A DNA stretch of 64,000 bases, taken from positions 1,600,001-1,664,000 of the forward strand of contig CBDCDZ010000004.1 in NCBI GenBank assembly GCA_965215565.1, read 5' to 3'. Within the stretch, counting starts at the first letter, position 1. Each line of letters begins with the position of its first letter. The notes under the pieces were generated by a model. The model was not told where the DNA came from. It saw only the letters and a list, made by a program, of their open reading frames with translations, and did no database searches. The DNA is from Trueperaceae bacterium (GTDB taxonomy: Bacteria > Deinococcota > Deinococci > Deinococcales > Trueperaceae). A program made the position numbers and the translations under genes. Positions 11,720 through 36,510 of the stretch are shown here, piece by piece.

Positions 11720-11801
11720 GTCCGTCCTTTCAGGGTGTTTCTCGCTCCAGTCTATATGACTCAAACCCTCTCGGAGAGGTTTTCTCCTGTAGGCTGCGCT
11801 G

Positions 11802-11915
11802 GTAGCGGTCCTAAGTCGAACGCTGCCGCGTGCTTCTTCTACCGTCTCCATACGATAAACAAGAGGTTGAAACCCCTTGTTTTGACACCACTGTCATTCC
11901 AGATAGAGCCACTAC
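11802..11915. repeat. Dispersed repeat family B, copy 1 (reverse orientation relative to copies 2 and 3)
   Basis: Reverse complement aligns with 42284-42397 along its length; central hairpin ACAAGAGG-ttgaaa-CCCCTTGT; ends GTAGCGG / CCACTAC. Confidence 0.8.
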
Positions 11916-11918
11916 CGT

Positions 11919-12908
11919 TCACGCACCCTCAGGGCCGCCGCTCAACCAGACGCCACCGGGGTCTTTGTCTGCTAGGAGCGCATCTACCGACGCCGCTAAG
12001 TCTCGGTGCAAGTAGAGCTGCTCCTTGCCGCGAATCTCCAAAGCGGAGCCGAAAACGGGCCGCGCCAAGCGGCGCTTGGCGGCTACGTCGATGCCGCCGA
12101 GCAGGGGCATCAAGTCGGGGTTATCCATCACGTCTTGGAGCGAGCCGCCGTGCGCCGTGGCGATAAAGCGCACACCGCGCCGCGCCATCGTAACGACGAC
12201 GTCCACATCGTTGTGGTAGCCGATTTCGTCAGCGATGACGACTTCGGGACCGTGGTTCGCAATCGCTTGCATCATGATTTTAGCTTGCACGGAAGGGTTA
12301 GGGACCTGTAAGCGCCGCGCCAAACCGATGCCGGGGTGAGGTATCTTGCCGTCGCCGCCGATTTCGTTAGACGAGTCTACGATGGCGACGTTCGGTCCTA
12401 GTTCGGCGGCTAGGATGCGGGCGACGTCGCGCAGGATCGTCGTCTTGCCAACACCGGGTCTGCCTATCAACATGAGCCCGTCGCGTTCGGTTTTTAGAAG
12501 CGGCTCTAAGGAAGCCGCCGCGCCGTAGATAAAGCGCCCGAAGCGCACCGTCACGCCAACGATTTCGCCGTAGCGGTCACGAATCGCGGAGATGCGGTGG
12601 AAGGTCTTTTCGATGCCAGTGCGGTTGTCCTCGCGGAAGCCGTGAATGCGGTGGATGATGTAGTGGATGTCGTCTTTTGTAACGACGCGTTCAAACGAGG
12701 CGTAGCCGGAGCCGTGCTTAATGACGAGTTGGCGGCCTACGTCTACGGCAATTGCTTCAAAGGCGTCCACGGTCAAGACCGCGTCTTGAATCCACATAGG
12801 CAAGATGAGGAGGAGTTCGGCTAAACCCTCTTCGCCTGCCGGAATAGGCGTACTGAGTGGGGGTGCAGGTGCAGCGCCGCTAGGAAGCTCAAATGATGTT
12901 GTAGACAT
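11919..12908 (-). CDS. SpoIIIAA/Ycf45-like AAA ATPase (no R3H domain)
   Basis: EDNRTGIEKTFHRISAIRDR.G.IVG.TVR.GR, Walker A GRPGVGKTT, IVDSSNEIGGDG, NHGPEVVIADEIG, ATAHG. Confidence 0.85.
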   Translation of the reverse strand: MSTTSFELPSGAAPAPPLSTPIPAGEEGLAELLLILPMWIQDAVLTVDAFEAIAVDVGRQLVIKHGSGYASFERVVTKDDIHYIIHRIHGFREDNRTGIEKTFHRISAIRDRYGEIVGVTVRFGRFIYGAAASLEPLLKTERDGLMLIGRPGVGKTTILRDVARILAAELGPNVAIVDSSNEIGGDGKIPHPGIGLARRLQVPNPSVQAKIMMQAIANHGPEVVIADEIGYHNDVDVVVTMARRGVRFIATAHGGSLQDVMDNPDLMPLLGGIDVAAKRRLARPVFGSALEIRGKEQLYLHRDLAASVDALLADKDPGGVWLSGGPEGA

Positions 12909-12976
12909 AAAGGCTCCTCCAAAAACGTGCTCGACGAACGAAATTCAGCGCTTTGTGACACCTGCGTTGACGCTCG

Positions 12977-13306
12977 TTAAGCACGCCGCCTTACGCCGCC
13001 TGTATAGGCCGTCACGGGACGTTCGGGAGGCGCAGGTGCTTCCGATGTAGAGAGAGATTCTTGAGTAGGCGGCTTGTTGAGTAGCAAATAGGTGAGCAGC
13101 TCGCGCAGCTTGGTGAGCTGTTGCAAGATAGCAAGCCCGAAGTAGATAAAGGCTGCTCCACCCATGAGTAGGCTACCCGCCATGAGCCCCCCTACATTTT
13201 GCGTACTCCATAGAACGAGACCACCCACAATGTAGATGATCATAAGTAGACGTAGGAGTAGTTTAGCGATACCTTGACGCTTGAGGGTGTCGAGAAGGCT
13301 TTTCAC
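12977..13306 (-). CDS. Small two-TM membrane protein
   Basis: Two hydrophobic segments; GTGA overlap with the upstream gene suggests translational coupling. Confidence 0.6.
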   Translation of the reverse strand: MKSLLDTLKRQGIAKLLLRLLMIIYIVGGLVLWSTQNVGGLMAGSLLMGGAAFIYFGLAILQQLTKLRELLTYLLLNKPPTQESLSTSEAPAPPERPVTAYTGGVRRRA

Positions 13307-13917
13307 GGTTGTTCCTCCACTTCTAAATTCGGCGTTTCCAACTCTAAGTCTAAAGTTTCTAAAAACGCCTCGGCGCTGTAAGGTTCGGCGGCGCTGAAGC
13401 TTTCGTAGAAGCTCGTCACGAAACTCGAGACCTCAGCCGCATCTTGCGATAGGCGCGTCGGCGTAACCTGAGCACCCGGTAGCTGCTTGACGCCGGCGAT
13501 GAGCGGCCCCTCGATGAGCACGCTGCGGTCGACGATGACGAAGCTACCCTGAAAGGAAACGAGGCGCACCGCCGCGTCTGCGAACGCTAGGCTGACAAAG
13601 TAAGAAGCTGGGTCGGTGATATTTTCGGGAGGCACAACCATGAACACGGTGACACTCCGGTCCACGGCGGCGCGTCTCAGCGCGTTCGCAACCTCTTTGG
13701 AGCGCAGCAGATCGCTCGCAACCATCAACTCTTGTGTCGCCGTATCGATCACTTGAACGACTTCAGCGGCATTTTGGAGCGTGCCTAACGTTGCACCTTG
13801 TGCTGTTTGCGGCACCGGCGTCGCGCCGCCGGTCTGCGCCTGAACAAGCGTGCTTGTCAGAAGGACCAGCGCCGCGACGCGCCATAACCTGCGTAGATGT
13901 GCGGTAAGCGTTATCAC
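13303..13917 (-). CDS. Exported PLD/Nuc-fold protein with degenerate HKD motif
   Basis: Signal peptide ending VQA; IDTATQELMVAS..LRSKEVANALRRAA..RSVTV resembles Nuc/PLDc_2; FQGSFVIVDRSVLIEGP sits where HxKxxxxD...GS is expected. GTGA overlap with virD4. Confidence 0.55.
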   Translation of the reverse strand: MITLTAHLRRLWRVAALVLLTSTLVQAQTGGATPVPQTAQGATLGTLQNAAEVVQVIDTATQELMVASDLLRSKEVANALRRAAVDRSVTVFMVVPPENITDPASYFVSLAFADAAVRLVSFQGSFVIVDRSVLIEGPLIAGVKQLPGAQVTPTRLSQDAAEVSSFVTSFYESFSAAEPYSAEAFLETLDLELETPNLEVEEQP

Positions 13918-16760
13918 GCAGCCTCGACTCTGCGCCGCTCCGGTCGCGAGGACTTCCTTGCTCTCGGTTTTTCAGCCTCTTTAGGGCTGCCTTGCTGCAC
14001 CTTAGCAGCTGCCTCAGAACCTGAGTCCGCCTTTTCCACAATCCAATCCCGAGCGTCCCCGCCTCCTTGGCTAGAGCTTGCTTGCGCCATCTTCTGCAGT
14101 TCAGCTAAAGCAGCGAACCGCTCGACGCGCCGCTGACCGAGCTGCTCCAGCCCTTCGCTGACGAGCCCCAACTTCCCCTTCTGTTTTTTAACTAAACGCG
14201 CTTTAACCCAACTACTTAACGCACCCGGTTCGGCAAGCTCTGCAGAAAGCGCGTCGGTGAGAACAGTAACTTTTGTAACCTCGTCCGTCTCAGTGTTTGT
14301 GTAGACGAGCACTTCGGGTTGAGGCTGAGCTTCTAGTAGCGCGTCGGCCCAGGTGAGAAAGGGGACCTGTCCCCCCTCCTGCGCAGGCTGAGGTAGAGGC
14401 TGAGAAGATGGGCCCGAGTTCTTCGGCGTTTGCACGCGAGCCTTCTTCTCGGTCTCTCGAGCATCACTTTTCGCAGTCGAAACGGACGTTGGCTTTTTCG
14501 TAGGCACTTGAGCGGGTTTGGAACGTTCTCCAGACTTGTCCGACTGAGCACGACCTTGAGCACCTTTAGAAGCCTGCGTTTTATGCAAGGCGACAAACCG
14601 CTCTATGCGCTCAGCACCTAAAAGCGCCATGCCGTCGCTGACGATCCCTAGCTGCTCCTTTTGCTTCTTGACCCAGCGCTGCTTAACCCAAACTTTGAGC
14701 GCGTCGGGTTCGGCAAGTTCACCTGAGAGCGTACCTGCGTCTACGGCAATCTTAGTAACCCTACCTGTTTCGTTTTCGGTGTAGAGCGTAACCTTCGCTT
14801 TAGCGTCCAGCACCGCGTCTACCCAACTCGTGAAGGCGTCCTTGTCCCCTTCGCCAATCACCTTCCCTTTAGTCATCGCCGCAACCTGGCTCCCACTGCT
14901 ACGTTTACGCGCGATCAACTCGCTCAGGTTGCCTTTAGCTGCGCTGTGCGCCATCATCGCCGTTCTGCGTCCCTGCAACAGCGCGCTCGTCTCAGCAGCG
15001 ACGTTGACGTTATCGGGCAGCTTAGCGTGGTAGTGCTGCAACTTGTTTTGCTTGCCGTGAACTTTTGCCTGATCCAAACGCGGCATGACCGTCTTAATGG
15101 GCGGCATCCCGTTGGCGATCACCACACCCACCGCGTCCGGCCAGTCGAACATCTCCTCCATCGACAGGAGCGGGCGCGACGCCTCACGCTTGCTCGCGCC
15201 GCGCCGAAACGACTCTAAAATCTCCATCGAGTTCATCCGGTTGCGCGTCGTCTCGATGACGGTCATCTCACCTAGCGCCTCGGCAAAAAACTTCGCGTCG
15301 TCGAACTTGAGGTAGCGCGGGAAAACGAGGATGTGCTGGAAGAGGTTCGTCAGGAGTGAGTTGGCAGCGGCGCGTCCGTAGACGGACTCCAACTGCGCCC
15401 TGTTTTGCAGCGCCACGTGATAGCCCACGCGGTACGAGCGCATGGTTGCAAAGTTCTCCTCCATATTGGGCAATTCGCCTAAGCTCGGAAATTCGTCTAG
15501 GTAGAACGACGTGTCCACCGGAAGCGTACCGCCGTGCTCGCGGGCGTTGCGCAAGAGCGCCCTGTCCAACACGCGCTTCGTAAGTTGCAGCAAAAGCTGC
15601 CCGTCGCCGCTCAAGAGGTTCTCTTGCGGCACGCCGATATAGAGGATGGACTTTTTGGTTCCCAAAGAGGTCAGGTCCACGTTCTCCCACGGGTACGCGG
15701 ACTGCTTGGTGGAACGCTCCAGGCGATCATCGCGGAAAATCTGCAGCTTGCCCTCTAAGCCATTGACGATGCCCGCCAACTTCGCGTCATCAATTTCCAA
15801 AAAAGAGGTGAACATCTCCTTGATGTCCTTATCAGGGTGCGACTCGATAAAGCCGCGCACCGCACTCTTGCCCATCATGAGCATCCTGTAAAGCTGACCC
15901 AAAGAGGTTTCGCCCAGAAGCGTCAAGCCCCACACCAAACCCGTGAGCAACTTGCGCTCCTGGTTTTTATAGAACTCGGCGTCACCCGCGTCCGTGTCGA
16001 TGGGCACGATCATCCGCGCGAACTCGCTCGCGCCGTCGAAGGTGTCCGCGCCCGCCAAAAGAGGTAAATTGAGCGTTTTTTCGCTAAAGGGCAAGAAGAG
16101 CTGCACGTCATAGCCCTTCTCCTCAAAGAAGGGCACCATGTTGAAAAAGCCGCCCCGCGCGTCCGGGTATTTGAGGTCCAAAACCACGCACGACACACCG
16201 TCTAGAGCGTCCATCAAGAGGTTTTGCTTGAAGTAGCGCGTCGTCTTACCGGAGCCGGGACCGCCGACGATGAGGGTATGGGCGTTGCGCTTACTTTCAG
16301 GGACACGCAAGAGCTTGCCCGACTTCGTGTGACCGATGTAACCGCGTAAGGGCGATGAGAACTTACCCTTATCCTCTTTGCGCAGAGGTAGCAACTCTTT
16401 ATCTGAGGCCCAGCGTGCACCGCCTGGCGCTTTCTCCGCCCCTGAAGGTAGACCGTCAGCCGTGAACATAAACACGGTGCTGATGACGAGCGAGAGGGTT
16501 GTAGCTACCGGTATCCACCAGGGGTAACGCTGCGCCCACACCTCATAGAAGGGCCCGCGACATTCGGCGGCGCTAAAGCACGCGAAGGTGAACACGCCCG
16601 GAGCCTCCGAGTCCAGGTTGAGGTAGCGCCCCCAGCCCTGTGCGAGCATCGCTGTGACGCTCTGACCGGTGACGCTCAGGGCGATGTAGAGACCGTAAGC
16701 GAAGAGGGTGAGGCCGGTGAGGAGGAAGAGGAAGCGGGGGAGTTGGCTGCGCTCGAGCAC
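13914..16760 (-). CDS. virD4: Type IV coupling protein (VirD4/TraG family) with long C-terminal extension
   Basis: Two N-terminal TMs, GGARWA, HTLIVGGPGSGKT (Walker A), LDLK, FYLDEFPSLG (Walker B), LQNRAQLESVYG, RPLLSMEE. Confidence 0.88.
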   Translation of the reverse strand: MLERSQLPRFLFLLTGLTLFAYGLYIALSVTGQSVTAMLAQGWGRYLNLDSEAPGVFTFACFSAAECRGPFYEVWAQRYPWWIPVATTLSLVISTVFMFTADGLPSGAEKAPGGARWASDKELLPLRKEDKGKFSSPLRGYIGHTKSGKLLRVPESKRNAHTLIVGGPGSGKTTRYFKQNLLMDALDGVSCVVLDLKYPDARGGFFNMVPFFEEKGYDVQLFLPFSEKTLNLPLLAGADTFDGASEFARMIVPIDTDAGDAEFYKNQERKLLTGLVWGLTLLGETSLGQLYRMLMMGKSAVRGFIESHPDKDIKEMFTSFLEIDDAKLAGIVNGLEGKLQIFRDDRLERSTKQSAYPWENVDLTSLGTKKSILYIGVPQENLLSGDGQLLLQLTKRVLDRALLRNAREHGGTLPVDTSFYLDEFPSLGELPNMEENFATMRSYRVGYHVALQNRAQLESVYGRAAANSLLTNLFQHILVFPRYLKFDDAKFFAEALGEMTVIETTRNRMNSMEILESFRRGASKREASRPLLSMEEMFDWPDAVGVVIANGMPPIKTVMPRLDQAKVHGKQNKLQHYHAKLPDNVNVAAETSALLQGRRTAMMAHSAAKGNLSELIARKRSSGSQVAAMTKGKVIGEGDKDAFTSWVDAVLDAKAKVTLYTENETGRVTKIAVDAGTLSGELAEPDALKVWVKQRWVKKQKEQLGIVSDGMALLGAERIERFVALHKTQASKGAQGRAQSDKSGERSKPAQVPTKKPTSVSTAKSDARETEKKARVQTPKNSGPSSQPLPQPAQEGGQVPFLTWADALLEAQPQPEVLVYTNTETDEVTKVTVLTDALSAELAEPGALSSWVKARLVKKQKGKLGLVSEGLEQLGQRRVERFAALAELQKMAQASSSQGGGDARDWIVEKADSGSEAAAKVQQGSPKEAEKPRARKSSRPERRRVEAA

Positions 16761-16824
16761 AGCTAAACCTTTCTAAAAGCATGTCTGAAAAGAGTTGATT
16801 TCATAACTATCTCCGCCTTGAGTG

Positions 16825-18807
16825 CTAGTTCGGATTCTTTCTCTTGATTTCCTCTTCGAGCGCCTTCATCTCGGGTTTAGTTTCCTCTATCTTTGCTTTT
16901 CTTCTCTTAGTTTTATTTGGGTCGTTCATAGACTGGTTGTATCTACCTGAGAACGCTCTTGCACCACCAGCAAGCGCTTTTCCTCCGCCAATAGCAGCGT
17001 TGCCGCCCGCTGTTCCTGCGCCTGCTGCCACACCTGCGCCCGCAGCCGCAATACCGCCTAGCGCGGACCCCGACACCGCGTTTGCCACACTACCCGAGAC
17101 GCCGCCGAGAAATCCCTGTAGCAGACCGGGAAGTTGCTTCATAATGTAGATAGATGCGAGCACGGCGATGGCTAGAAAGATGAGGCTGAATAGCCACTGA
17201 ATCATTAGTTTCTGTATATTGAATAGAGCCGGCGGAATCGTAGTTCCTAAATTAGCCATGTAGAAGAGCGACGCATCCGTGGCAACGTTTTTAACACCTT
17301 CAAACTGCGCTAACATGTCTTGCACAATTTCATTAGTTGTGGACATCGGTTTTTCCACGCCTACCGTGACGACGACGCTGTAAACGAAGGGAAACGCAAC
17401 TATGTTGGCGAACGCTAGAAGGACCATACTGAGCCATCTATTGATCCAACTGCTCGAGCCCGGCAACATAAGGAAAGCGGCGACGACAGGTAGTATAACG
17501 CCCGCCAGTATAACAGTAATAGCAGACGAGTAAATGACGAGTAAGTAGATGCCGTAAAGAGAACCCATCAAAATCATTACGCCGTAGATACCTTTAGTAA
17601 AGCCACCCGAAAGCGCGGACGCCTCGTCAATAAGGTCGTTGCCGGGTACAACGTCAGGGACCAGGCCACCCGCAATTTTGATCGCTACCGTAGCAGTTGC
17701 GGCGGCGGCTAGCGCTGGACCTAGCGTGTCGAGTTGCGCCTCCAGATCGTCCGTCGCAGGTTTAACAACATTTTGCGACATCGAATCATATACACCTTCC
17801 CATAGCCGAAGAGTTTCACCACTGATAGCAGGCGCGGCGAAGATGAGACCCGAAGCCACGATCAGCCTGCCAAAAAGTGCGAGATATTGGTCCGATTGAT
17901 AGTAGTAGGTGATGTTGATGAGGCTCCACACGAAAAATGCAAAGAGAAGCGTCATACCTACCGTGTTGATATTTTTCGCGAGGTTAAGGTCATCCATCGC
18001 GTTCATCGTGGCGTCGATCCACTCCTTGGGGGTAGGGAGAAACGCCTGTTGCCCAGATGAATTGTCTATATCTATATTACTCAAGTCAAAGCGGTCTTCC
18101 ACCTCGGGTAGGTCATATGCCGTCACTTCAGGTAAGATGTTTGTTTTTTGACCCAACTTAACTGCGCCGTCAAGAAGTCTCTTACCAGCCCCTCGAAAGC
18201 TGAAACCCCCTTCCTCTTCGGCCCCTCCACCTCCTTGCCCTTGAACGCCTTCGGTTTCGGGAAGCCCTGCAGCGCTGATATTTATGGGACTGCCAGCACT
18301 CACCACTTGTCCCTCTTGAAGACCTGCCGCCTCATCCCAATGCTCGCCGTCAGGTGCGTAAACACTTCCCAAAAAGCCGTTGGTGATCTCGAAGTGGAGG
18401 TGGCGGCCTGTCGAGCGACCATCTTCAGGTCGGTCACCACCCATATCGCCGATGGTTTGACCGGTCTGTACATACGAACCATCCGGTACAGTCCTCTCTC
18501 TCAGATGACCGTAAAGCGTCGTTAGCCCGTTAGGGTGCTCAATATAGAGGTACGAACCGTAGCCGCCGGGGTTTTCCTTGTAAACCACCCTGCCCTCGTA
18601 CGCCGCAACAACGGGAACAGCTTGGCTCGAGGGCGTACCATCGGGCGGAACGATGTCGATGCCTTTATGTGGTCTTCCCCAACGCTCTTTGATGTGCGAG
18701 CTAACCGGGCCAGTGGTTGGTTGAACAAACTGCGCTTGAGCAGTTTCGCTAAGGAGCAAAAGTAGCACGCAAATGAACAAGCTATATTTTATGGTGACCT
18801 TTGCCAT
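16825..18807 (-). CDS. M23 metallopeptidase fused to a VirB6/TrbL-like polytopic membrane domain
   Basis: Signal peptide ending AQA; HKGIDI, GYG.Y..IEH...TLYGHL, STGRHLHFEI; then several TM segments and a Gly/Ala-rich tail of TrbL/VirB6 type; lies between VirB5-like and VirD4 genes. Confidence 0.75.
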   Translation of the reverse strand: MAKVTIKYSLFICVLLLLLSETAQAQFVQPTTGPVSSHIKERWGRPHKGIDIVPPDGTPSSQAVPVVAAYEGRVVYKENPGGYGSYLYIEHPNGLTTLYGHLRERTVPDGSYVQTGQTIGDMGGDRPEDGRSTGRHLHFEITNGFLGSVYAPDGEHWDEAAGLQEGQVVSAGSPINISAAGLPETEGVQGQGGGGAEEEGGFSFRGAGKRLLDGAVKLGQKTNILPEVTAYDLPEVEDRFDLSNIDIDNSSGQQAFLPTPKEWIDATMNAMDDLNLAKNINTVGMTLLFAFFVWSLINITYYYQSDQYLALFGRLIVASGLIFAAPAISGETLRLWEGVYDSMSQNVVKPATDDLEAQLDTLGPALAAAATATVAIKIAGGLVPDVVPGNDLIDEASALSGGFTKGIYGVMILMGSLYGIYLLVIYSSAITVILAGVILPVVAAFLMLPGSSSWINRWLSMVLLAFANIVAFPFVYSVVVTVGVEKPMSTTNEIVQDMLAQFEGVKNVATDASLFYMANLGTTIPPALFNIQKLMIQWLFSLIFLAIAVLASIYIMKQLPGLLQGFLGGVSGSVANAVSGSALGGIAAAGAGVAAGAGTAGGNAAIGGGKALAGGARAFSGRYNQSMNDPNKTKRRKAKIEETKPEMKALEEEIKRKNPN

Positions 18808-19982
18808 TAGTACTTGAACAACCCGTTGTCGCTGAGTGAAATCAATTTCGAATTGGGCTCTTCTACCATTGTGTTACCCATAGCTTCTAGTGTACCGATC
18901 GCTGTTGCAGCGTCGTCCGCGTAGCTATTGATCTGTTGCATGATACTTCTCTGCTTTTCAGTAATTTCGTCTAACCGGTTTGCGCGCATCGTCTGGTGCA
19001 TCGCCGTCAATTCATTCGTATTATAGGTTCCTGAGAGCACCTGCGCTTTCATCAGGTCACTCAAGTTGGTAAAACCCATAGAAATAAGCTCACCCTGAGT
19101 GAGTAGGTCTTGAGTGAACTGCGTTACAGCCGCTCTCGTTGTGGGTACAGCGTTAATAATATCTGTTGCTGCAGGTACAAAATCCTTTCGATACTTCTGG
19201 TCAATTTCGTTTATTGTCGTGGACTCTAGAACCTTCTCAGCTACGTTGCCTGCCTCTACCGCATTGGCAAGAGACCTACCTTGAGCGACGATGTTGTCGG
19301 CTTTCTCGACGCCTAGCAGGTCGTTTGCTCTTCTAAGAAGGGGGTTGTACGCAAGTGCATCGTGGAACTTACGCTCGGGTGTGCCTTCAGGCGCATTGGC
19401 TGCGTTTTGCGCCTCCAACTCTATTTTTTCCAAAGCGATATCGCCCACAACATCAAGGATTTCGTCACCGCTATCTTCAGGTTTGAGGATGGCAGCCTCG
19501 AGTCTTTGGGAAAACTCATTCAGCTCATCTCTTGTAATTTGCGAACCCAGACCGAGGTCGTACTGCAGAAAGTCGGTCGCTAGATTTTTACCCCACCCGC
19601 TCAGCACGGTCTCGTAATTCTCGAACATGTAGGTGACATCTTGGTACGTATCAGAGATGCCACAAGCAACGTCCTCGACAGTCTGCCCCGCATCTTCTTG
19701 AGTTACGCCGTCGCACACTCCCGTAAGCAGTTCCTCAAAGGAGAAATCCTGGATGAGGTTGTAACCCTGAGTAAAGTACTCTCCATATTCGTTCCAGAGA
19801 TTACCTAAATCTTCATCGACTACACCCAGGAGACCACCAACACCCTCGCCCTCTGGCATATCCGCACAGGTTTCTCCCCCTGCAAAACCTGGCGTGCAAA
19901 ATTGACCATCTTGAGCCGACGCTACGCTCAGTAGCCCTACCAGGCAGACCGCTGTAGCAGAAAGAAAAAATTTGCTCATCAC
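18807..19982 (-). CDS. Secreted helical protein, VirB5/TrbJ-like by position
   Basis: Signal peptide ending ASA; Gln/Thr/Leu-rich helical C-terminal half; coupled to virB4 (ATGA) and to the M23-VirB6 gene (TAATG). The VirB5 call is largely positional. Confidence 0.5.
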   Translation of the reverse strand: MMSKFFLSATAVCLVGLLSVASAQDGQFCTPGFAGGETCADMPEGEGVGGLLGVVDEDLGNLWNEYGEYFTQGYNLIQDFSFEELLTGVCDGVTQEDAGQTVEDVACGISDTYQDVTYMFENYETVLSGWGKNLATDFLQYDLGLGSQITRDELNEFSQRLEAAILKPEDSGDEILDVVGDIALEKIELEAQNAANAPEGTPERKFHDALAYNPLLRRANDLLGVEKADNIVAQGRSLANAVEAGNVAEKVLESTTINEIDQKYRKDFVPAATDIINAVPTTRAAVTQFTQDLLTQGELISMGFTNLSDLMKAQVLSGTYNTNELTAMHQTMRANRLDEITEKQRSIMQQINSYADDAATAIGTLEAMGNTMVEEPNSKLISLSDNGLFKY

Positions 19983-22507
19983 TCCCTCACTCCCTGCGGA
20001 TACCTCGCCGCGAGTTCGTCCAAAGCCGCAACCAAGTTGCCGCCGTGCTCATCTAATACCTCTTTGCGTTTCGCCATGTCGTAAGCGTTGGTGGTGTAAG
20101 CCCAGTACTCGACGGGCGTAGGGCGAACGATCATCACGTCTCCTTCCAGCCGGTCTTCGCGGCGAATCCAGGTCAAGACTTCACTAAAACTACCGCTACG
20201 GCTCGTGAGCGAGCGAAAGACTTCGATGCCTCTGTCGCTCATCTCTAAAAGTTCTTGGACAAGGGCGTCTTCGCCAGGAAGTCTCAGCAAGTAGTGGTAC
20301 GTCGTGTTTTGCAAAAGCCCTTTGGCGTTCTCACCGACGAAATCTTGCAGGCTTTGTGTGACGGCGTAAGCGGCGGCGTTGTAGCGCCGAAAACGGCGGT
20401 AGAGTTCGATCATGAAGCTCGCCGCCTCGTTCACCTTCATGATGCTCCAGGCTTCGTCGAATACAGCGATTTTGCGCTTGGCAGGGTCCTTCTTGACGCG
20501 CTTCCAGATGAGGTCGGAGACGAGGAGCGTACCAACCGCTTGCAGCTCCGGGTAGCGGTCTAACCCGGTGGTCTCGTAGTAGACGACGTTCGCGTCTGAG
20601 CGTATATTCGTCTCGCGGTCGACAAAGCGCCCGAAGGGGGTGTCGCCCGTCCAGTTCTGTAAGCGCAGGGAGAGGCTGCGGGCGATGTCGCGTTCGGCTT
20701 CACTCGCGGGGCGGTCGCCGATCTCTTCCATTGTGACCAGGACGCGCGCTAAGTCGGAGAGCTTCGCGCCTGCAAAAAAGCGCTCGACTGTGCCGTCCTC
20801 TTTACGTCGCTCGCTCGTGAAGCGCGAATACGTTTGACTGATGGCGTGGTTCAAAATAGCGTTTTCGGTTGCGCCAACTGCGCCCCCCTCAGAGGGCACC
20901 ATCGCGCGAATCAGGGCAAGCAAAAAGGCGCGCTTCTCCTCGTCGGGACTCACTTCACCGGGGGGCAAATCGAAGGGGTTAATGCTGACCTTACCGGGTT
21001 CGATCGGAATGGTTTCGCCGTCGAAAAGTTCGACGAGGTGCGCGTAGCCGTAACCACGGTCGATGATCATGACGTCAACGTCGCCGCGCAGCAGTTCGCC
21101 TAAAAGCGTCTGCATCAAAAAGGTCTTGCCACTGCCCGACGAACCCACGACAATGGCGTTCCAGTTCGAGCTGCGCGGATCGAAGGGATCGAGCGCGGTC
21201 AAGGAGTCCCAGCGGTTCCACAAAAGGGTGACGGGTTTGCCCGAGCCGGGCCAGGGCATGTCCACCGGGAAGAAGTCGGCGGCGTTCTCTTCGAAGGTCA
21301 AAAAGGTGCGCTCATTGGTACCGCCGGAGAAGGGCGCGAGCGCCAGATACTGCGTCATGAGCCCGGCGGACTCGATGATGCCTTGCGCGCCAGGGAGGTG
21401 CGCGAGCTTGTTCGTCGCGTCCTGCATCCCCTCTTTAACGCCCTCCAAGGTTTTATCCATCAAAGCCATCGTGACACCCACGCGGTAGACGTGGGAGCCG
21501 CTCAGTGACGCCTCGGAGAGCGCCTCGTCCACCTCGTGAAAGCCCTGACGCATCGAGGGGTCGGAGTAGTCGGTGAAGCCGCCGCGCATCGTCGTCGCGG
21601 AGTAGAGCCTCCGCGCCTGATTCATAAGCGCGCGCACCGTCTTACCGTAGGGCTCGTGGCAGAAGTCGATACAGAGCCAGAAGAGTTTGGGCATACTGAG
21701 GAGGTGACCGATGAGACCGGTATAGGTGTAGCCGACGGGCAGCGAGCCCATGCTGAGCATCTGCACGTAGTAGTCCGAGACGCGCAGGTTGTTCCAGCGC
21801 CTGATGAGGTCGGAGTTGACCACTTGTGAGCGCAGGGTGGGCGGCGCGAGATGCGGCATCTCTTTAAGGACCTCTTTCGGCAGGTGAACCTCGGGCGCTT
21901 CGTAGTCTGGGATGTCGCCGAAGCGCGCGTCGGGGTTGAACCAGCGGTACATCGTCTCGAAGATGCCTTGGTTGAGAAGCGGGATAGGGGCGAAACCCGC
22001 GTCGCGAAAGGTCGTATAGAGTTTGTTGCGTAAAATATGCGCCCTTTCTAAAATCTTTGTCATCTCACCAGGGCTGTAAGACTGCGTCCGCTTGCGCTTG
22101 CGTTGCGGGCTGAGGGTACAGGTTACATAGAATCTATATTCGACTAAATTGCCCTCTTTGCGCGTCGCGTCGAGGTTGCGCACCTTGTTGACGGTTAGGA
22201 GATGCGCCGAGGGGTGGTCTGTATTCAACCCCTTCTGATAGCGCTGCAGAATGCTCCGACGCATTGGCGTCGCTTCAATGAGGAGGCGCATCCGCTCGTC
22301 TTGCGGGACCGCGTGGCGAAGCACGTTCGTCAACGTCGCGTTGAGCGAATCCAACTCGGCGCTGCTCAGTAACAGCGTGTTGATCGAGCGGATTTCGACG
22401 CCCACCTCGACTTGACCGTTGTTCAGAAACACCACACCGTCCAAAATGTCATGAAACGGTAGCTGCTCCGCGAACGACGCCTCATCCCTCGTAAGAGATT
22501 GTGCCAC
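19979..22507 (-). CDS. virB4: VirB4 family T4SS ATPase
   Basis: NWNAIVVGSSGSGKT, IIDRGYGY, INPFDL, AVFDEAW, RRFRRYNAAAYAVTQSLQDF; 842 aa. Confidence 0.9.
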   Translation of the reverse strand: MAQSLTRDEASFAEQLPFHDILDGVVFLNNGQVEVGVEIRSINTLLLSSAELDSLNATLTNVLRHAVPQDERMRLLIEATPMRRSILQRYQKGLNTDHPSAHLLTVNKVRNLDATRKEGNLVEYRFYVTCTLSPQRKRKRTQSYSPGEMTKILERAHILRNKLYTTFRDAGFAPIPLLNQGIFETMYRWFNPDARFGDIPDYEAPEVHLPKEVLKEMPHLAPPTLRSQVVNSDLIRRWNNLRVSDYYVQMLSMGSLPVGYTYTGLIGHLLSMPKLFWLCIDFCHEPYGKTVRALMNQARRLYSATTMRGGFTDYSDPSMRQGFHEVDEALSEASLSGSHVYRVGVTMALMDKTLEGVKEGMQDATNKLAHLPGAQGIIESAGLMTQYLALAPFSGGTNERTFLTFEENAADFFPVDMPWPGSGKPVTLLWNRWDSLTALDPFDPRSSNWNAIVVGSSGSGKTFLMQTLLGELLRGDVDVMIIDRGYGYAHLVELFDGETIPIEPGKVSINPFDLPPGEVSPDEEKRAFLLALIRAMVPSEGGAVGATENAILNHAISQTYSRFTSERRKEDGTVERFFAGAKLSDLARVLVTMEEIGDRPASEAERDIARSLSLRLQNWTGDTPFGRFVDRETNIRSDANVVYYETTGLDRYPELQAVGTLLVSDLIWKRVKKDPAKRKIAVFDEAWSIMKVNEAASFMIELYRRFRRYNAAAYAVTQSLQDFVGENAKGLLQNTTYHYLLRLPGEDALVQELLEMSDRGIEVFRSLTSRSGSFSEVLTWIRREDRLEGDVMIVRPTPVEYWAYTTNAYDMAKRKEVLDEHGGNLVAALDELAARYPQGVRE

Positions 22508-22907
22508 GGGGTCTCACCTCCTCACCTAAGGGTTCTACATGACCTCTACGCTTGCCGCTGTTACCCCGACGCCCAAAGCGTCCTGCGTTACGCGGGCGCA
22601 CCTGCGCGTGATCCACGATGAGCGGGACGTTGTCGGTGTCGGGGACGCACCTATAAACCTCTGGTTCACCCAACCAAACGATAAAGTGTTCGGCGAATTT
22701 GTCAGGAACCTTATCCTTGAGGAGGTACCAGCCCCAGTAGACGAACGCCACTATAAAGAGGCACAAGAAGAGCTTGAGGCGGGGCGGGGCGAAGACACCT
22801 AGCACCTGTATGCTGAAGACAAAGGTACCCAAGATGACGCCCCAGTCGACGACGGACATCCCCAAAATCGTGAACTTGCTCTCCAATTTATAGAGGCGGT
22901 GCTTCAT
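22482..22907 (-). CDS. VirB3/PrgI-like small membrane protein
   Basis: KFTILGMSVVDW followed by two TMs; directly upstream of and overlapping virB4. Confidence 0.65.
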   Translation of the reverse strand: MKHRLYKLESKFTILGMSVVDWGVILGTFVFSIQVLGVFAPPRLKLFLCLFIVAFVYWGWYLLKDKVPDKFAEHFIVWLGEPEVYRCVPDTDNVPLIVDHAQVRPRNAGRFGRRGNSGKRRGHVEPLGEEVRPRGTISYEG

Positions 22908-22926
22908 AACATTCCTCTTCTAAACC

Positions 22927-23349
22927 TTAGGCGCAGGGTGCCTGAAGGAGCGCGGCGAAGGCTGTGCTCGAGCCGAGGATGAGCGTCGTGCCGACGGCGG
23001 CGCGCGCGATCATGGGCATGGCGTCGCGGCTGGCAACCTGCAGCGCGATAAGTCCCGCAACGAGCACGAGAAACCCGATGCCGATACCGAGCGGCCCGGT
23101 GAGACCGTTTGCCACTGCACAAACGGTGTTGGTAACCTCACCGAAAGCGGTGTCACCGTCAGCCGTTGGCGTGGCGGTACCGTTGGAGAGCACCTGAGCC
23201 ACAGCGACGTTGCCGACGGTCAAACCGCCAATAGCGAGACCTACGACAGCTACAGGTGCAAAGGACATGAGGCACGCCATTAAGGTTGAGGCGAGCTTGC
23301 GGGTGAACGTACGAGGGTGCTTCGCAGAGGATTGGGTAGATTGCTTCAT
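22927..23349 (-). CDS. VirB2/TrbC-like pilin precursor
   Basis: Long signal ending AVA; LTGPLGIGIGFLVLVAGL, then a second hydrophobic helix; first gene of the operon, with an AGGAG RBS. Confidence 0.7.
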   Translation of the reverse strand: MKQSTQSSAKHPRTFTRKLASTLMACLMSFAPVAVVGLAIGGLTVGNVAVAQVLSNGTATPTADGDTAFGEVTNTVCAVANGLTGPLGIGIGFLVLVAGLIALQVASRDAMPMIARAAVGTTLILGSSTAFAALLQAPCA

Positions 23350-23602
23350 CTCTACTCTCCTTTAGGTTGAGCGGGTGAATTTGTGTGCAGCTCAACTGAG
23401 GGTCAGCGTACCGAAGCTAGAAAACCCACGAGAGGTTAAGCAGTTCTGATTCTGCGGCTTGACTTCCGTACTTCGGGTTTCCCGATAAAAGATCGTTTTT
23501 CCGCGCGACGACGGGAGGGCTGCGTTGTCTCTAACGAGGTCTACGAGCCGCAAAAGCTAAACACATCCTTTACATGGCTGAATTTCCTATACTAGGCTCA
23601 AC

Positions 23603-25246
23603 ATGAAGAACAGTGACCTCAGGCTCGATGACGATGTTCGCACGCTCCTAGAAAGGGAGCTTGACGCTGATGTACCCGATCCCAACAGCCCTGACTTTCA
23701 GGCTTTTTTAGAGGACATTCAAGTCGAGCGCCCTGATCTGTTCGATGAGGTCATGCGCGGTCTCCAGGTCAACGTCACGTTGCCTGTCGAGAAACAAGCG
23801 CAGCAGGCGGCGCGGCGCGACAGCATCAATGAGCAGTTTACCCGCGCCTTTTTCCAGCGCTCAAAGGTGGACGGCGAGGCGATCCCGGCTAAGCGGCGCA
23901 TCATCACCTACGTCTTTGGTTTGGCGGCGTTTCTACTCCCCGTGATGTACATTCTTGCTCAAACGTTTCAATTTGACGCAACTTCGGACATCGCGCAGGA
24001 GCAGAGCGTACCGCTCGAGCCCGAGCCCGGCTCCTTAAATAGCCAGAGCAGTGTGTCACTTCAGACGCCGCTGGAGCCCGAAGTGCCCATCCCCGAGCCG
24101 GAGCCTAGAGCAGTCGTCACCTTCCCTGACCCCGAGCCGGAACCGAGCGAGCCCACCCCGAGCGAGCCGCGCCAAGCCGCGCCATCCCCACCCCGACAGC
24201 AGGCTGCTGCGCCGCGTCCGCCTAGCCCCACCCCCACATCGGCTCCTACGCCACCGGCTCCCACGCCACCCGCCCCTTCACCTACCCCACCCGCGCCAAC
24301 ACCCTCACCCAGCCCGCAGCGTGCACCCGCGCCTACGGTTCCCGAACCCGCCGAGGTCTTACCCGGTACGCTCGAGCTTTACCGGGCGCAGTACACCGCG
24401 CCCAGAAGTGTCGAGCTTTACCAGGCTCCTCAGCCTCCGGGTAACCTCCGCGTGTACCAACAGGAAAGCGTACCGCCCGCCTCGCTTAACTTGCTAGGAG
24501 CATCCGGCGAGCAAGCGCCGCCACAAGAGACCGTTCTATTCGACCTGAACGCGCAGGCGCAAGAAGGGGGTGCGCCCACGTCGCCTATAACGGGCGGAGG
24601 GAATACTGAAGGTCAACCTTCCTTACCTGCCGCACAGTCACAGTCTATAGTCGCGTCGCCGAGCGAGCCCGCTCCTTTCACCCTCCCGCTCGGCTCCCGC
24701 ATCCAAGCGACGTTGGCCACGGGTATCTTCGTCGCCGAAGGCGCCGCCGTTCCCGTTGTTGCGCACTCGAGAGGTGACTGGTGCACGGAGCCGCCCTGCC
24801 CCGAGATCACCTGGATAGGTCAAGCGCGGCTGGACGCGACGAACCGGGTGCAGGTCAACTTCACTCAGGCACTGCTGGACGGCAGCTTGCAAAATGTGAC
24901 CGCCTTGGCGCTCAACCCGGACTCGAGCAACGGGCTCAGGGCAGATTTGCGCGACGAGGCGTCGCTGTCCGCCGAGAATTTGCTGCGCAACGGCGCGGCA
25001 GGCGTTTCGGACTACGTGGACGCGCTCGTCAACCAGCAGACCGTCACCTTTACAGATAGGGGCATCGTCACCGAGAACACCGTGCCCGAAGCCGACGCCT
25101 TTATCGCGGCGCGCATCGCGAGTCTCTTCGACTCACCCGTTGCGAGAGGACCCACATTAAGGATCGCCGAGATACCTGCGGATACACCCCTACTCGTGCT
25201 TTACGGGGTCAACCCGCAGTTGGGACAACCCTCAGAGCAACCCTAG
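23603..25246 (+). CDS. VirB10/TrbI-like bitopic protein with Pro-rich linker
   Basis: Acidic cytoplasmic N-terminus, single TM, long PEPEP/PTPPAP linker, C-terminal LPLGSRIQATLATGI...WIGQARLD..NRVQVNF...ALNPDSSNGL resembling the TrbI/VirB10 barrel; divergent from the pilin gene. Confidence 0.65.
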   Translation: MKNSDLRLDDDVRTLLERELDADVPDPNSPDFQAFLEDIQVERPDLFDEVMRGLQVNVTLPVEKQAQQAARRDSINEQFTRAFFQRSKVDGEAIPAKRRIITYVFGLAAFLLPVMYILAQTFQFDATSDIAQEQSVPLEPEPGSLNSQSSVSLQTPLEPEVPIPEPEPRAVVTFPDPEPEPSEPTPSEPRQAAPSPPRQQAAAPRPPSPTPTSAPTPPAPTPPAPSPTPPAPTPSPSPQRAPAPTVPEPAEVLPGTLELYRAQYTAPRSVELYQAPQPPGNLRVYQQESVPPASLNLLGASGEQAPPQETVLFDLNAQAQEGGAPTSPITGGGNTEGQPSLPAAQSQSIVASPSEPAPFTLPLGSRIQATLATGIFVAEGAAVPVVAHSRGDWCTEPPCPEITWIGQARLDATNRVQVNFTQALLDGSLQNVTALALNPDSSNGLRADLRDEASLSAENLLRNGAAGVSDYVDALVNQQTVTFTDRGIVTENTVPEADAFIAARIASLFDSPVARGPTLRIAEIPADTPLLVLYGVNPQLGQPSEQP

Positions 25247-25284: not shown

Positions 25285-25899
25285 ATGAGCAAGTGGAAAA
25301 AATTGGGGTATACCTTCGTGTTTAGTATCTTCGTCCTTCACTTAGGCATGACCTCACTCTACGTGGTGCCTTCCCCGAGCACGCCGCCCGCTTTAGCCGC
25401 GCTGCGCAACGCGCTTTACGGGAGTACGCTGTTCCGGCAAAGCTGGCCTCTTTTCGCCTCGTACTATCCCTTAAAAGCTGATCTCGGCTTATCCGTAAAA
25501 TGTTTAAGCAACGCTGCGAAACACGCACCTCATACGTATAGCGACATCACTACCCCAGTATGGCAGCGCAGAGAGCGTGGTCTTCTCTCGCCCGAGCAGT
25601 GGATAGCGCAACGCTTGAGAAATACCCTTTCCGTCCCCTACTTCAACTATGCCCGCCTCAAGGGGGCGCAAGGAGAAAGGACGAGCTACGCCGACTTCTT
25701 TAACTGGTTGGAGCGCACACCGACCTTCGGACAACAAGTTGCTATCCTGAGCGCGCTCGCCGCGCGTCACTGCAGCACCAAAGGCGAATTCTCTCGAGCT
25801 GATCTGCAATTGTGGGCTTGTCCTTTAGAGCTGTGGCGCAGTGAGCGCGAACCATGTACCCGGCATCCACTCGGCACCTTCGCCCTGCCTAAGCTATGA
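25285..25899 (+). CDS. SdpA-like / DUF5819-like membrane-anchored protein
   Basis: N-terminal TM with HLGMTSLYVVP, then LFRQSWPLFA (Q.W.LFA motif); ATGA overlap with the HTTM gene. Confidence 0.6.
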   Translation: MSKWKKLGYTFVFSIFVLHLGMTSLYVVPSPSTPPALAALRNALYGSTLFRQSWPLFASYYPLKADLGLSVKCLSNAAKHAPHTYSDITTPVWQRRERGLLSPEQWIAQRLRNTLSVPYFNYARLKGAQGERTSYADFFNWLERTPTFGQQVAILSALAARHCSTKGEFSRADLQLWACPLELWRSEREPCTRHPLGTFALPKL

Positions 25900-26711
25900 T
25901 CGCGTCTCTCACTCAGACACCTCTTCATACAGCCGGGAGCCGCGTCATGCTCGCTTTTATCGGCGCGGCCCTCCTCTGGCGCATGACGAGCACCCTCCCT
26001 GAAGTTCCTTTTCTCTACGGCGCGCTGGCCGACGTGCCCCTACCCCCGCGCAGCGTCTACACGCTCTACGCCATCTGGAGCCTGGCTGCACTAGGGCTCA
26101 TCGTGGCGAGGTACACGCGTGTGTGTGCGCTCATCGCGCTACTCGCTTATGGAATTGACACCCTAACGGGGTTACATAATGCGGGGGACCACCTGGCGCG
26201 CATCACGCTCATTTACGCTCTCCTCTTAGACGAAGACCTGATGCGCGGACAGAAGAAAGTAGGACCCGCTGTCTTTTTTCACAACTTAGGCGTGATTGCG
26301 ATCACGGTTCAGCTTTGCATCGTCTACATCAACGCATCACTCTGGAAGCTGTATGGACCCGACAACCTTTGGTTGGGAGGAACCATGCTCTACTACGTTA
26401 CCCATCTGCAGAGTCACGGCATGGCGTGGTCAAGGTGGTTTTTCGAATCGCCTGTCATCGTCTACACGGCGACGTACATGACCTTGCTCTACCAGCTCTC
26501 GTTTTTGCCCCTTCTTTTCACCCGCTGGCACTGGGTATCGGTGCTCATAGGCACCGGGCTGCATCTGGGCATCGGTCTCTTGCTCGGCTTGATGCCGTTC
26601 GGTCTCATCGTGACAGGTCTCGTGCTGTTCACGCTGCGCGACGCGACGTGGCGACGGATGGGTGAGTATACTCGCGCTAAAACATTCAGAAGAGGGGTCA
26701 GCTCGTCTTGA
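25896..26711 (+). CDS. HTTM-domain membrane protein (SdpB-like)
   Basis: NAGDHL, QLCIVYINASLWKL...WLGGTMLYY, LHLGIGLLLGLMPF; multiple TMs. Confidence 0.75.
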   Translation: MIASLTQTPLHTAGSRVMLAFIGAALLWRMTSTLPEVPFLYGALADVPLPPRSVYTLYAIWSLAALGLIVARYTRVCALIALLAYGIDTLTGLHNAGDHLARITLIYALLLDEDLMRGQKKVGPAVFFHNLGVIAITVQLCIVYINASLWKLYGPDNLWLGGTMLYYVTHLQSHGMAWSRWFFESPVIVYTATYMTLLYQLSFLPLLFTRWHWVSVLIGTGLHLGIGLLLGLMPFGLIVTGLVLFTLRDATWRRMGEYTRAKTFRRGVSSS

Positions 26712-26912
26712 GGTGTAGCATTAAACTCGAACCTTGACCTTGCGTGCTCGAGCCAGAAGAAATCGCGAGGTGGAGCACTTTGAGCAGTATAAATGACCTC
26801 TCACGAGGGCGGGTGTCAGCCTAACGAGTATGAGCAAATGCAATGGGCGGAGAAAGCAAGAGGTTTAATTCGGATAGACCACGCTAAAAAATCACAGAAA
26901 GAGGCAAATGCA

Positions 26913-26941
26913 GTAGAGGTGGGTTTGAAACCCACCTCTAC
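26913..26941. repeat. GTAG-type REP-like palindrome
   Basis: GTAGAGGTGGGTTT-G-AAACCCACCTCTAC, 14-bp perfect arms. Confidence 0.75.
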
Positions 26942-26955
26942 GCCGCGTACTCTCA

Positions 26956-27057
26956 GTAGTGGCGCTGTTCGGAATGATGCAGAGGTTAAACAAGGGGTTT
27001 CAACCCCTTGTCCACTGTGAGGAGATAGCATATGACAGCGTCCGGCTTAGAACCATT
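26956..27057. repeat. Dispersed repeat family B, copy 2
   Basis: GTAGTGGC...GGAATGA...AAACAAGGGG-tttcaa-CCCCTTGT...GGAGA...CGGCTTAGAACCA; aligns with 42284-42397. Confidence 0.75.
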
Positions 27058-36287: not shown

Positions 36288-36510
36288 GAAGCTCCTTTAT
36301 TTGTAGAGTACAGGGGAGTCAGGTGGAATCTTACAGATGCGGCAATCCAAAGTAGTAATGAGTTCCAAGCAATCCAGTCGAGCTGGTGTACGTAAGTCCT
36401 CACGTAGTGAACGAACGGTGAGCAATGAGTCTAAAGGTTTTCACTCATTGCTCGTTACGGGCGAGCCCTGCCGTTTCATTGATTTCAACTCGTTGCTGTA
36501 AACCTATGCT

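Follow-up and report, generated by a model that had tools for sequence, protein, structure and literature searches.

Positions 11919..25246 of a 64,000-nucleotide stretch of the chromosome of a Trueperaceae bacterium (G000:C4:1600001-1664000, hereafter the window) carry ten genes of a type IV secretion system (T4SS), which were compared with 60 sampled relatives, 128 genomes of the family (127 others), 364 genomes of the class and the plasmids of the Deinococcota. The genome measures 4.49 Mb in 4 contigs and is rated 99.99% complete; the GC content of the gene run is 0.51-0.61, against 0.58 for the chromosome. A first-pass annotation of the window had described a co-oriented and largely coupled minus-strand run with one divergent gene, and this layout was recovered: all ten open reading frames (ORFs) are open at the positions given below, with no frameshift or stop codon, and five of the eight junctions of the minus-strand run overlap, by 1-26 nt. 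The ten genes and the pair that follows them are:

11919..12908, minus strand: SpoIIIAA-like ATPase (Pfam Spore_III_AA, E 2e-14; Walker A/B intact at 149 and 223; single copy in the genome)
12977..13306, minus strand: small two-helix membrane protein (hydropathy; homologues at the same place in the relatives G018, G034 and G074)
13303..13917, minus strand: exported PLD-fold-like protein (weak TrmB and DrmC matches, both below cut-off)
13914..16760, minus strand: VirD4-type coupling protein (Pfam T4SS-DNA_transf, E 1e-34; Walker A/B intact at 166 and 419)
16825..18807, minus strand: signal peptide, M23 peptidase and VirB6-like multi-pass membrane protein in one (Pfam M23, E 7e-24)
18807..19982, minus strand: exported helical protein, VirB5-like by position only (N-terminal hydrophobic segment; no informative family match)
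19979..22507, minus strand: VirB4 ATPase (Pfam P-loop_TraG, E 2e-29; Walker A/B intact at 455 and 680; single copy in the genome)
22482..22907, minus strand: VirB3-like membrane protein (two hydrophobic segments; no informative family match; assigned by position, size and hydropathy)
22927..23349, minus strand: VirB2-like pilin (Pfam TrbC, E 7e-4, below cut-off)
23603..25246, plus strand: VirB10/TraB-like protein, divergent (one transmembrane segment at 100-118, proline-rich linker)
25285..26711, plus strand: DUF5819-like and SdpB-like gene pair, starting 38 nt past virB10 (weak matches below cut-off)

By its gene content, its intact motifs and the folds of VirB10 and of the remotely encoded VirB9 described below, this locus is a T4SS. 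The Walker motifs of VirB4 and VirD4 are intact, as first proposed, and so is the likeness of the divergent gene to VirB10 borne out: when its C-terminal 199 aa were modelled (mean pLDDT 76.6), the 12 best PDB matches were all T4SS outer-membrane core chains of VirB10 type, with a best E of 9e-7. Sequence searches of the PDB with the ATPase and VirB10 returned nothing useful, and no promoter-like site was found in the divergent gap between the pilin and VirB10 genes. The pilin has an orthologue annotated TrbC/VirB2 on two Thermus plasmids, and the VirB3-like gene is kept immediately before virB4 in 6 of 9 related loci (BLAST clustering). The VirB6 assignment is based on position and hydropathy (seven hydrophobic segments beyond residue 280), the HxxxD and HxH motifs of the fused peptidase being intact. 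The closest named relatives of VirB4 are found in Trueperaceae first, then in Thermus and Meiothermus. For the helical protein, which has a low GC3 (0.52) and is 27% identical to its G018 orthologue, the nearest Atlas clusters are unnamed and mostly Deinococcota (0.90). A C-terminal domain of ~90 aa is duplicated in VirD4, while a single copy was detected in G018, G034 and G150.

Seven of 9 related loci have a homologue of the SpoIIIAA-like ATPase beside the T4SS; it is the conserved third ATPase of this T4SS type, probably in the role of VirB11. The PLD-fold-like gene was found in 8 of 9 such loci. Since the H and K of the catalytic motif HxKxxxxD are absent in 9/9 aligned family members, its product is probably structural.

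A T4SS type of Deinococcota

VirB4 matches were obtained in 12 of the 60 sampled relatives, distributed over five Deinococcales families, in 9 of the 127 other family genomes (two of them partial) and on 19 plasmids of Deinococcota (Thermus, Deinococcus and related). On plasmids and chromosomes alike the same order recurs, with virB10 diverging from virB2, virB3, virB4, the helical protein gene, virB6, virD4, the PLD-fold gene, (a transglycosylase gene) and the ATPase gene. This distribution does not support the initial view of a lineage-specific system, and because the order recurs, both the SpoIIIAA-like ATPase and the PLD-fold gene belong to the standard equipment of the type and are not local oddities. 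The closest known system is the predicted “Thermus conjugation system” of pTA69 (T. aquaticus Y51MC23), with its relatives on Thermus, Allomeiothermus, Oceanithermus and Deinococcus plasmids; the window system is a member of this pTA69-like type, its VirB4 being 40% identical over 98% and its divergent virB10 order the same. On these plasmids, unlike in the window, virB10 is followed by a Replic_Relax-like gene, the operon includes a transglycosylase, and an unfused VirB9 lies nearby. The plasmid section of PMC4605624 predicts the pTA69 system, names pTA69-45 as relaxase, leaves the Replic_Relax-like gene unnamed and reports no transfer test; by its position between ParA and a serine protease, pTA69-45 is a tyrosine recombinase. 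Beyond this prediction we found no description of the type in the open-access literature, in agreement with the first-pass annotation, which had considered it possibly undescribed.

A FastTree phylogeny of VirB4 was built from 45 sequences, made up of 34 loci selected from 82 (one dropped for a split gene), 11 sequences from the sampled genomes and the window, leaving out fragments, further outgroups and reference sequences of the mating-pair formation (MPF) classes. VirB4 of the window belongs to a Deinococcota-centred clade that is separated from Bdellovibrionota and Acidobacteriota outgroups with a support of 0.998, and is sister to that of G018:C46 (1.0; 74% identical), then to G121 (0.97), then to G034 and G150 (0.87); G121, G034 and G150 all bear the MOBC-like gene described hereafter. 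The likeness to MPF_F extends to the best NCBIfam VirB4 model, which is TraC-F-type, to the match of a VirB9 part with the F-plasmid core and to the TraX genes of G018. The difference is that the VirB4 score lies far below cut-off (193.6 bits against 567, every NCBIfam VirB4 model being below its cut-off), that a third, SpoIIIAA-like ATPase is added and that TraN, H, W and F were not found in the loci scanned. The system is therefore assigned to no MPF class here.

In most related loci virB10 is followed by a gene of 165-195 aa, 3 of the 4 scanned proteins of which reach the cut-off of Pfam Replic_Relax (MOBC, PF13814), and which RefSeq names Replic_Relax on two plasmids. With H, P-D and E-x-D-x-G-x-Y invariant, this product is a candidate short MOBC-like relaxase. 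It resembles the MOBC relaxases (TraX of pAD1, MobC of CloDF13; PD-(D/E)XK fold), as does the gene of a Bdellovibrionota sister system, but is only ~165-195 aa long, is missed by MOB-suite and was not found in our genome. PMC12857230 defines MOBC and its main text does not mention Thermus, Deinococc or SpoIIIAA. In the Bdellovibrionota T4SS nearest to the Deinococcota-centred clade (L094, L096, L137) an FtsK-type protein follows virB10, L137 also having a Replic_Relax gene. A second subtype (G006, G018, G066) has an HUH relaxase with an auxiliary gene. Either relaxase is present in 10 of the 12 VirB4-positive sampled relatives and in 8 of the 9 other VirB4-positive family genomes, the exceptions being G003 and G085, with VirB4 fragments in fragmented assemblies, and G060.

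The latter genome (one contig, 94% complete) is a second relaxase-less case, on another branch, with its parts spread over ~25 kb and with the same peptidoglycan-binding fusion as the window genome; MOBC-like, HUH and Pfam relaxase profiles found no relaxase in it. Together with G152:C113, G160:C212 and G163:C70, it forms a second group (L028-L030, L177, L179-L181) in which the VirB4s are close (79-81% identical) and no MOBC-like gene was seen to adjoin virB10 where this is visible, three of the four assemblies being fragmented.

Among the plasmids, the MOBC-like gene was found, with a single-protein query, on 15 of the 19 with VirB4 and on 14 further ones without a VirB4 match, a pattern that is the one of conjugative versus mobilizable plasmids; MOB-suite types 27 of the 29 as non-mobilizable. 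Decayed copies also occur: virB10 is split and virB4 truncated in G071, and pVV8 keeps a relaxase-like gene without a VirB4 match. Plasmid pVV8, which PMC7767461 links to biofilm formation, was considered as a source of phenotype for the machine and rejected, as no T4SS was seen in the 46 of 81 kb viewed; the consulted parts of PMC7694296 and PMC7767461 describe no T4SS on pVV8 and related plasmids.

Relaxase, integrase and boundary searches

Profile searches recovered no relaxase from the window or from the rest of the genome, as the first-pass annotation had noted for the window. Genome-wide, the cognate MOBC-like profile gave 0 matches at E<=1, while positive in relatives, and the HUH subtype profile 0 at E<=0.1. 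PF03432, PF03389, PF08751, PF01076, PF07514, PF02486 and PF18555 also gave 0, their positive controls being detected; PF13814 gave 0 too, in a search whose positive control was likewise missed. We know of no oriT for the pTA69-like type. At the position where relatives have the MOBC-like gene lies the DUF5819/SdpB-like pair, which is unrelated, is not a T4SS part and is of a gene type that presumably matures peptide toxins.

Neither an integrase nor a tRNA attachment site was recovered, again as first noted: the window has no tRNA, the nearest lying ~156 and ~182 kb away, and three integrase/recombinase queries matched only far from it. The repeats flanking the run, at ~11800-11900 and 26870-27015, were rejected as attachment sites, given their 72 and 100 matches genome-wide; they are among dispersed palindromic repeats of ~100 nt found throughout the genus, which also occupy 1184-1296 and 36350-36460 of the window. 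Apparent 15-kb joints in sequencing reads were likewise discarded, their sides being ~20 nt long and within these repeats. A fixed chromosomal position, suggested earlier as a comparison to make, was not found: the two genomes of the same genus have no VirB4 or VirB9 match. Synteny with G001 and G002 breaks off on both flanks, so that a comparison with an empty site did not reveal where an insertion might have occurred. On contigs C1-C3, neither the genome-wide searches nor a scan of 33 of their ORFs returned a match to a relaxase or a T4SS gene. The 24-kb C1 (L001, L002) carries a tyrosine integrase, a RepB-type primase, a type I restriction system and a DUF927 protein 41% identical to one in an element of G059, and has no long chromosome match; C3 (L006, L007) consists of an 11-kb unit in ~2 tandem head-to-tail copies, encodes a primase-helicase and a PemK/MazF-like protein, and is probably a small plasmid.

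By these relaxase and integrase/attachment tests the system is not a conjugative element. In the sister locus G018:C46, too, no relaxase follows virB10; a transglycosylase is there instead. Since VirB4 of the window and of G018:C46 nest among MOBC-like-bearing elements, the relaxase was most likely lost rather than primitively absent, the simplest reading of the gene comparison being a single loss before the two genera split. The first-pass annotation had asked, as a sign of an ordinary or decayed conjugation module, whether VirB4 lies among conjugative elements of the same gene order and whether a cognate relaxase or an integrase-bounded integrative and conjugative element exists elsewhere; the former was observed, in a clade of relaxase-bearing elements, and the latter was not, anywhere in the genome.

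Remote outer-ring genes and domain fusions

VirB9 is absent from the window, as the first-pass annotation stated for its 64 kb, and present elsewhere in the genome, so that the system, first supposed to be perhaps minimal, is not. Profiles of conserved element genes searched against the genome recovered the following on contig C4, ~1.3-1.4 Mb from the window:

184577-186595: VirB9-like (profile match)
249238-252081: conserved protein of these elements, with a fused peptidoglycan-binding domain (profile match)
252306-255440: VirB9-like (profile match)
255446-255967: VirB9-like, C-terminal half (profile match)
277040-278104: VirB9-like (profile match)
281984-282676: lytic transglycosylase (profile match)
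336976-340266: VirB9-like (profile match)

One VirB9 part was modelled (pLDDT 89.2) and its 10 best matches were T4SS outer-ring chains (best E 4e-9), the first being the outer-membrane core of the F plasmid. VirB9-like genes are found in 9 of the 128 family genomes, all VirB4-positive, with about one per VirB4 except here, where there are four and a half. Three copies carry 1, 2 and 3 carbohydrate-binding modules (CBM) of type CBM4/9 and together form one clade (0.998); one pair of these fused copies shows dN 0.28 and dS 1.20.

The VirB9-CBM fusion recurs in 10 database proteins from metagenomes, with 1-5 CBMs each and in some cases ricin-type or F5/8 domains, and in none of the other genomes among the 364 of the class (E<=1e-40, at most 4 candidates scored per genome). 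The M23-VirB6 fusion is seen, with intact motifs, in 6 of 7 other database matches, also from metagenomes; the G018 orthologue of VirB6 has no M23 domain. One protein of each kind (P0006 for VirB9-CBM, P0015 for M23-VirB6) is in each case recorded on an ENA contig of 93,573 bp, an equality of length that hints at possible linkage of the parts. Among the 120 listed of 198 relaxase-like proteins none was matched by size to a fusion-bearing contig, a comparison too weak to count, and a scan of JGI metagenomes showed no M23/CBM-subtype locus in the 28 of 80 loci profiled. No open-access report of a VirB9 with a carbohydrate-binding module was found, nor one of multiplied VirB9-CBM4/9 copies or of a VirB6 fused to an M23 peptidase.

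Amid the remote VirB9 genes lies a cluster of CBM4/9 proteins (C4:257026-272265; L059, L060), three of them lipoprotein-like and one a GH9 hydrolase, which is a likely source of the domains fused to VirB9; CBM4/9-like genes also stand near T4SS genes in G018. Beside the remote transglycosylase, C4:280599-281912 (L060:14599-15912) encodes an arginine-rich protein of 437 aa with no Pfam match and a strongly basic C-terminal tail (net +9 over 30 aa), which may represent either a T4SS substrate or what remains of a relaxase tail. A TraU identity for the remote 947-aa protein was not retained, being a weak lead only (Atlas 0.81; Pfam TraU 0/30 family members). A small protein associated with the elements also gave matches at C4:3019345 and 3708395, but these proved to be tails of Tn7-like TniQ proteins (3019345-3020964 and 3708395-3710044; L066, L067) and not relaxases. 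The relatives of this C-terminal domain of ~150 aa are stand-alone genes adjoining VirB9 in conjugative-type elements (G150, G074, G071, G121), suggesting a possible link between transposon targeting and such elements.

Possible function and significance

We favour, at a probability of roughly 45%, a T4SS core that was inherited from a Deinococcota conjugative element, was retained once the relaxase had been lost and now serves protein export or cell contact. VirB4, VirB3, M23-VirB6, VirD4 and the SpoIIIAA-like ATPase would constitute its inner-membrane motor, and the M23 domain would open the peptidoglycan, relatives having an in-operon lytic transglycosylase. VirB10 and the remotely encoded VirB9/TraK subunits would form an outer ring, anchored to envelope glycans by the CBM4/9 tails and by the peptidoglycan-binding tail of the C4:249238-252081 subunit, and VirD4 with its doubled C-terminal domain would recruit protein substrates in place of a relaxosome. 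The C-terminus of VirB9 is presumably on the periplasmic side of the outer membrane, as in core-complex structures, which makes it more likely that the CBM tails bind glycans of the cell's own envelope than outside surfaces; a gene for an S-layer-homology protein adjoins the module on Thermus plasmids, and its product may serve the same anchoring end. The estimate was kept at this level because own-envelope anchoring fits exaptation and a mobile subtype alike.

In favour of exaptation are the intact genes, the relaxase loss common to the sister locus, the multiplied and modified VirB9 and the doubled VirD4 tail. Like the exapted T4SS of Xanthomonas (X-T4SS), Helicobacter (ComB/Cag) and Legionella (Dot/Icm), the system is chromosomal, lacks a relaxase, keeps VirD4 and has the same outer-ring folds; it differs from them by its VirB4 lineage and phylum, its dispersal over the chromosome, its CBM-fused VirB9 paralogues and M23-VirB6, and by the fact that no effector or immunity genes were identified. 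Relaxase-less T4SS are often chromosomal and integrase-less and arose many times by exaptation according to PMC3548315, the consulted part of which mentions neither Thermus nor Deinococc.

Selection was also considered. In the comparison with G018, 9 of the 10 genes have a saturated pS, while pN is 0.18-0.50. A closer relative, ~85-95% identical over pieces of the ATPase, small-protein, PLD, VirB4, VirB3, pilin and VirB10 genes and over both neighbours of the run, is present in a sequencing run of another study (X3), in which 16672-20006 and 25343-26676 are barely covered, if at all, and cannot be interpreted; two further runs (X5, X6) lack this stretch. Twenty differences lie inside T4SS genes among the 40 listed of 1130 rows, and 19 of these 20 are third-position and synonymous, a pattern that speaks for a working history and not for a present job. 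Purifying selection joins the failure to find a relaxase genome-wide, or an integrase or attachment site nearby, in supporting the domestication that the first-pass annotation had considered possible.

Several observations weigh against this reading. The system occurs infrequently and unevenly, in 10 of 128 family genomes and in neither of the two from the same genus, as would be expected of a mobile element more than of a host function, and the purifying selection could date from life on such an element. Part of the remote region (C4:276-283 kb) looks like the remnant of an element, with a helix-turn-helix gene, whose homologue precedes VirB9 in G150, together with VirB9 and the transglycosylase. 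A relaxase outside the families searched, such as MOBM (tyrosine-recombinase-like), MOBB or a new one, may be present; G018, an assembly of 330 contigs, encodes on other elements two HUH relaxases, which might work in trans. No substrate was identified, and neither was a candidate for VirB7 or VirB8, for which no dedicated search was run.

The best-placed alternative, though a doubtful one, is that a Deinococcota-type conjugative element was recently broken up in this chromosome. Its M23 and CBM fusions would adapt a subtype that is still mobile to the envelope, its relaxase would have been displaced by the DUF5819/SdpB-like pair and the locus would be idle or need a relaxase in trans. The gene order shared with plasmid modules, the patchy distribution, the unrelated pair exactly at the relaxase position, the decayed copies in G071 and pVV8 and the 93,573-bp contig records, which suggest that the parts can be linked, are all consistent with it. 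It accounts less well for ten genes without frameshift or stop, for the almost exclusively synonymous change (19/20 listed), for a sister locus in another genus equally devoid of a relaxase and for VirB9 copies multiplied and kept under selection.

A more elaborate form of exaptation, which we regard as unlikely, would take the machine off conjugation with a ring built from interchangeable, scattered VirB9 paralogues bearing 1-5 CBMs; the choice of paralogue would set the docking glycan (own envelope, neighbouring cell or polysaccharide surface) before protein export, the whole tracing back to a conjugation class that spans the phylum, is unclassified and has a short MOBC-like relaxase of its own.

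Also unlikely is a relaxase-independent DNA machine, for release, donation or uptake of chromosomal DNA (cf. Thermus transjugation, Helicobacter ComB), or one using a relaxase of an unknown family. The full-length VirD4 with intact Walker motifs would suit such a role, and three studies give it precedents in the uptake and release of DNA as known exaptations (PMC3548315), in relaxase families still emerging, one of them derived from a tyrosine recombinase (PMC12857230), and in non-classical DNA donation in Thermus (PMC7767461). However, the locus has no DNA-processing gene linked to it, the catalytic residues are missing throughout the family of the PLD-fold protein, and neither the doubled VirD4 tail nor the glycan-binding fusions have an evident DNA role. 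A dead remnant not yet decayed, which the scattering of key parts and the lack of the system in two same-genus genomes could suggest, is very improbable given that 19 of the 20 listed differences from a relative several percent diverged are third-position and that all checked catalytic motifs are intact.

For the phylum, the plasmid data (15/19 with VirB4 and 14 without) make conjugation in Deinococcus-Thermus testable, with Thermus thermophilus as a suitable host, in contrast with the finding in PMC9185392 of 0 conjugative among 67 Deinococcus-Thermus plasmids, for which transjugation was suggested as a possible reason. A MOBC-like profile would then fill a gap in plasmid typing tools. The window represents one such machine after the probable loss of its relaxase and, if its ring is built from the VirB9-CBM proteins, T4SS anchoring or targeting would be achieved here in a manner that is new.

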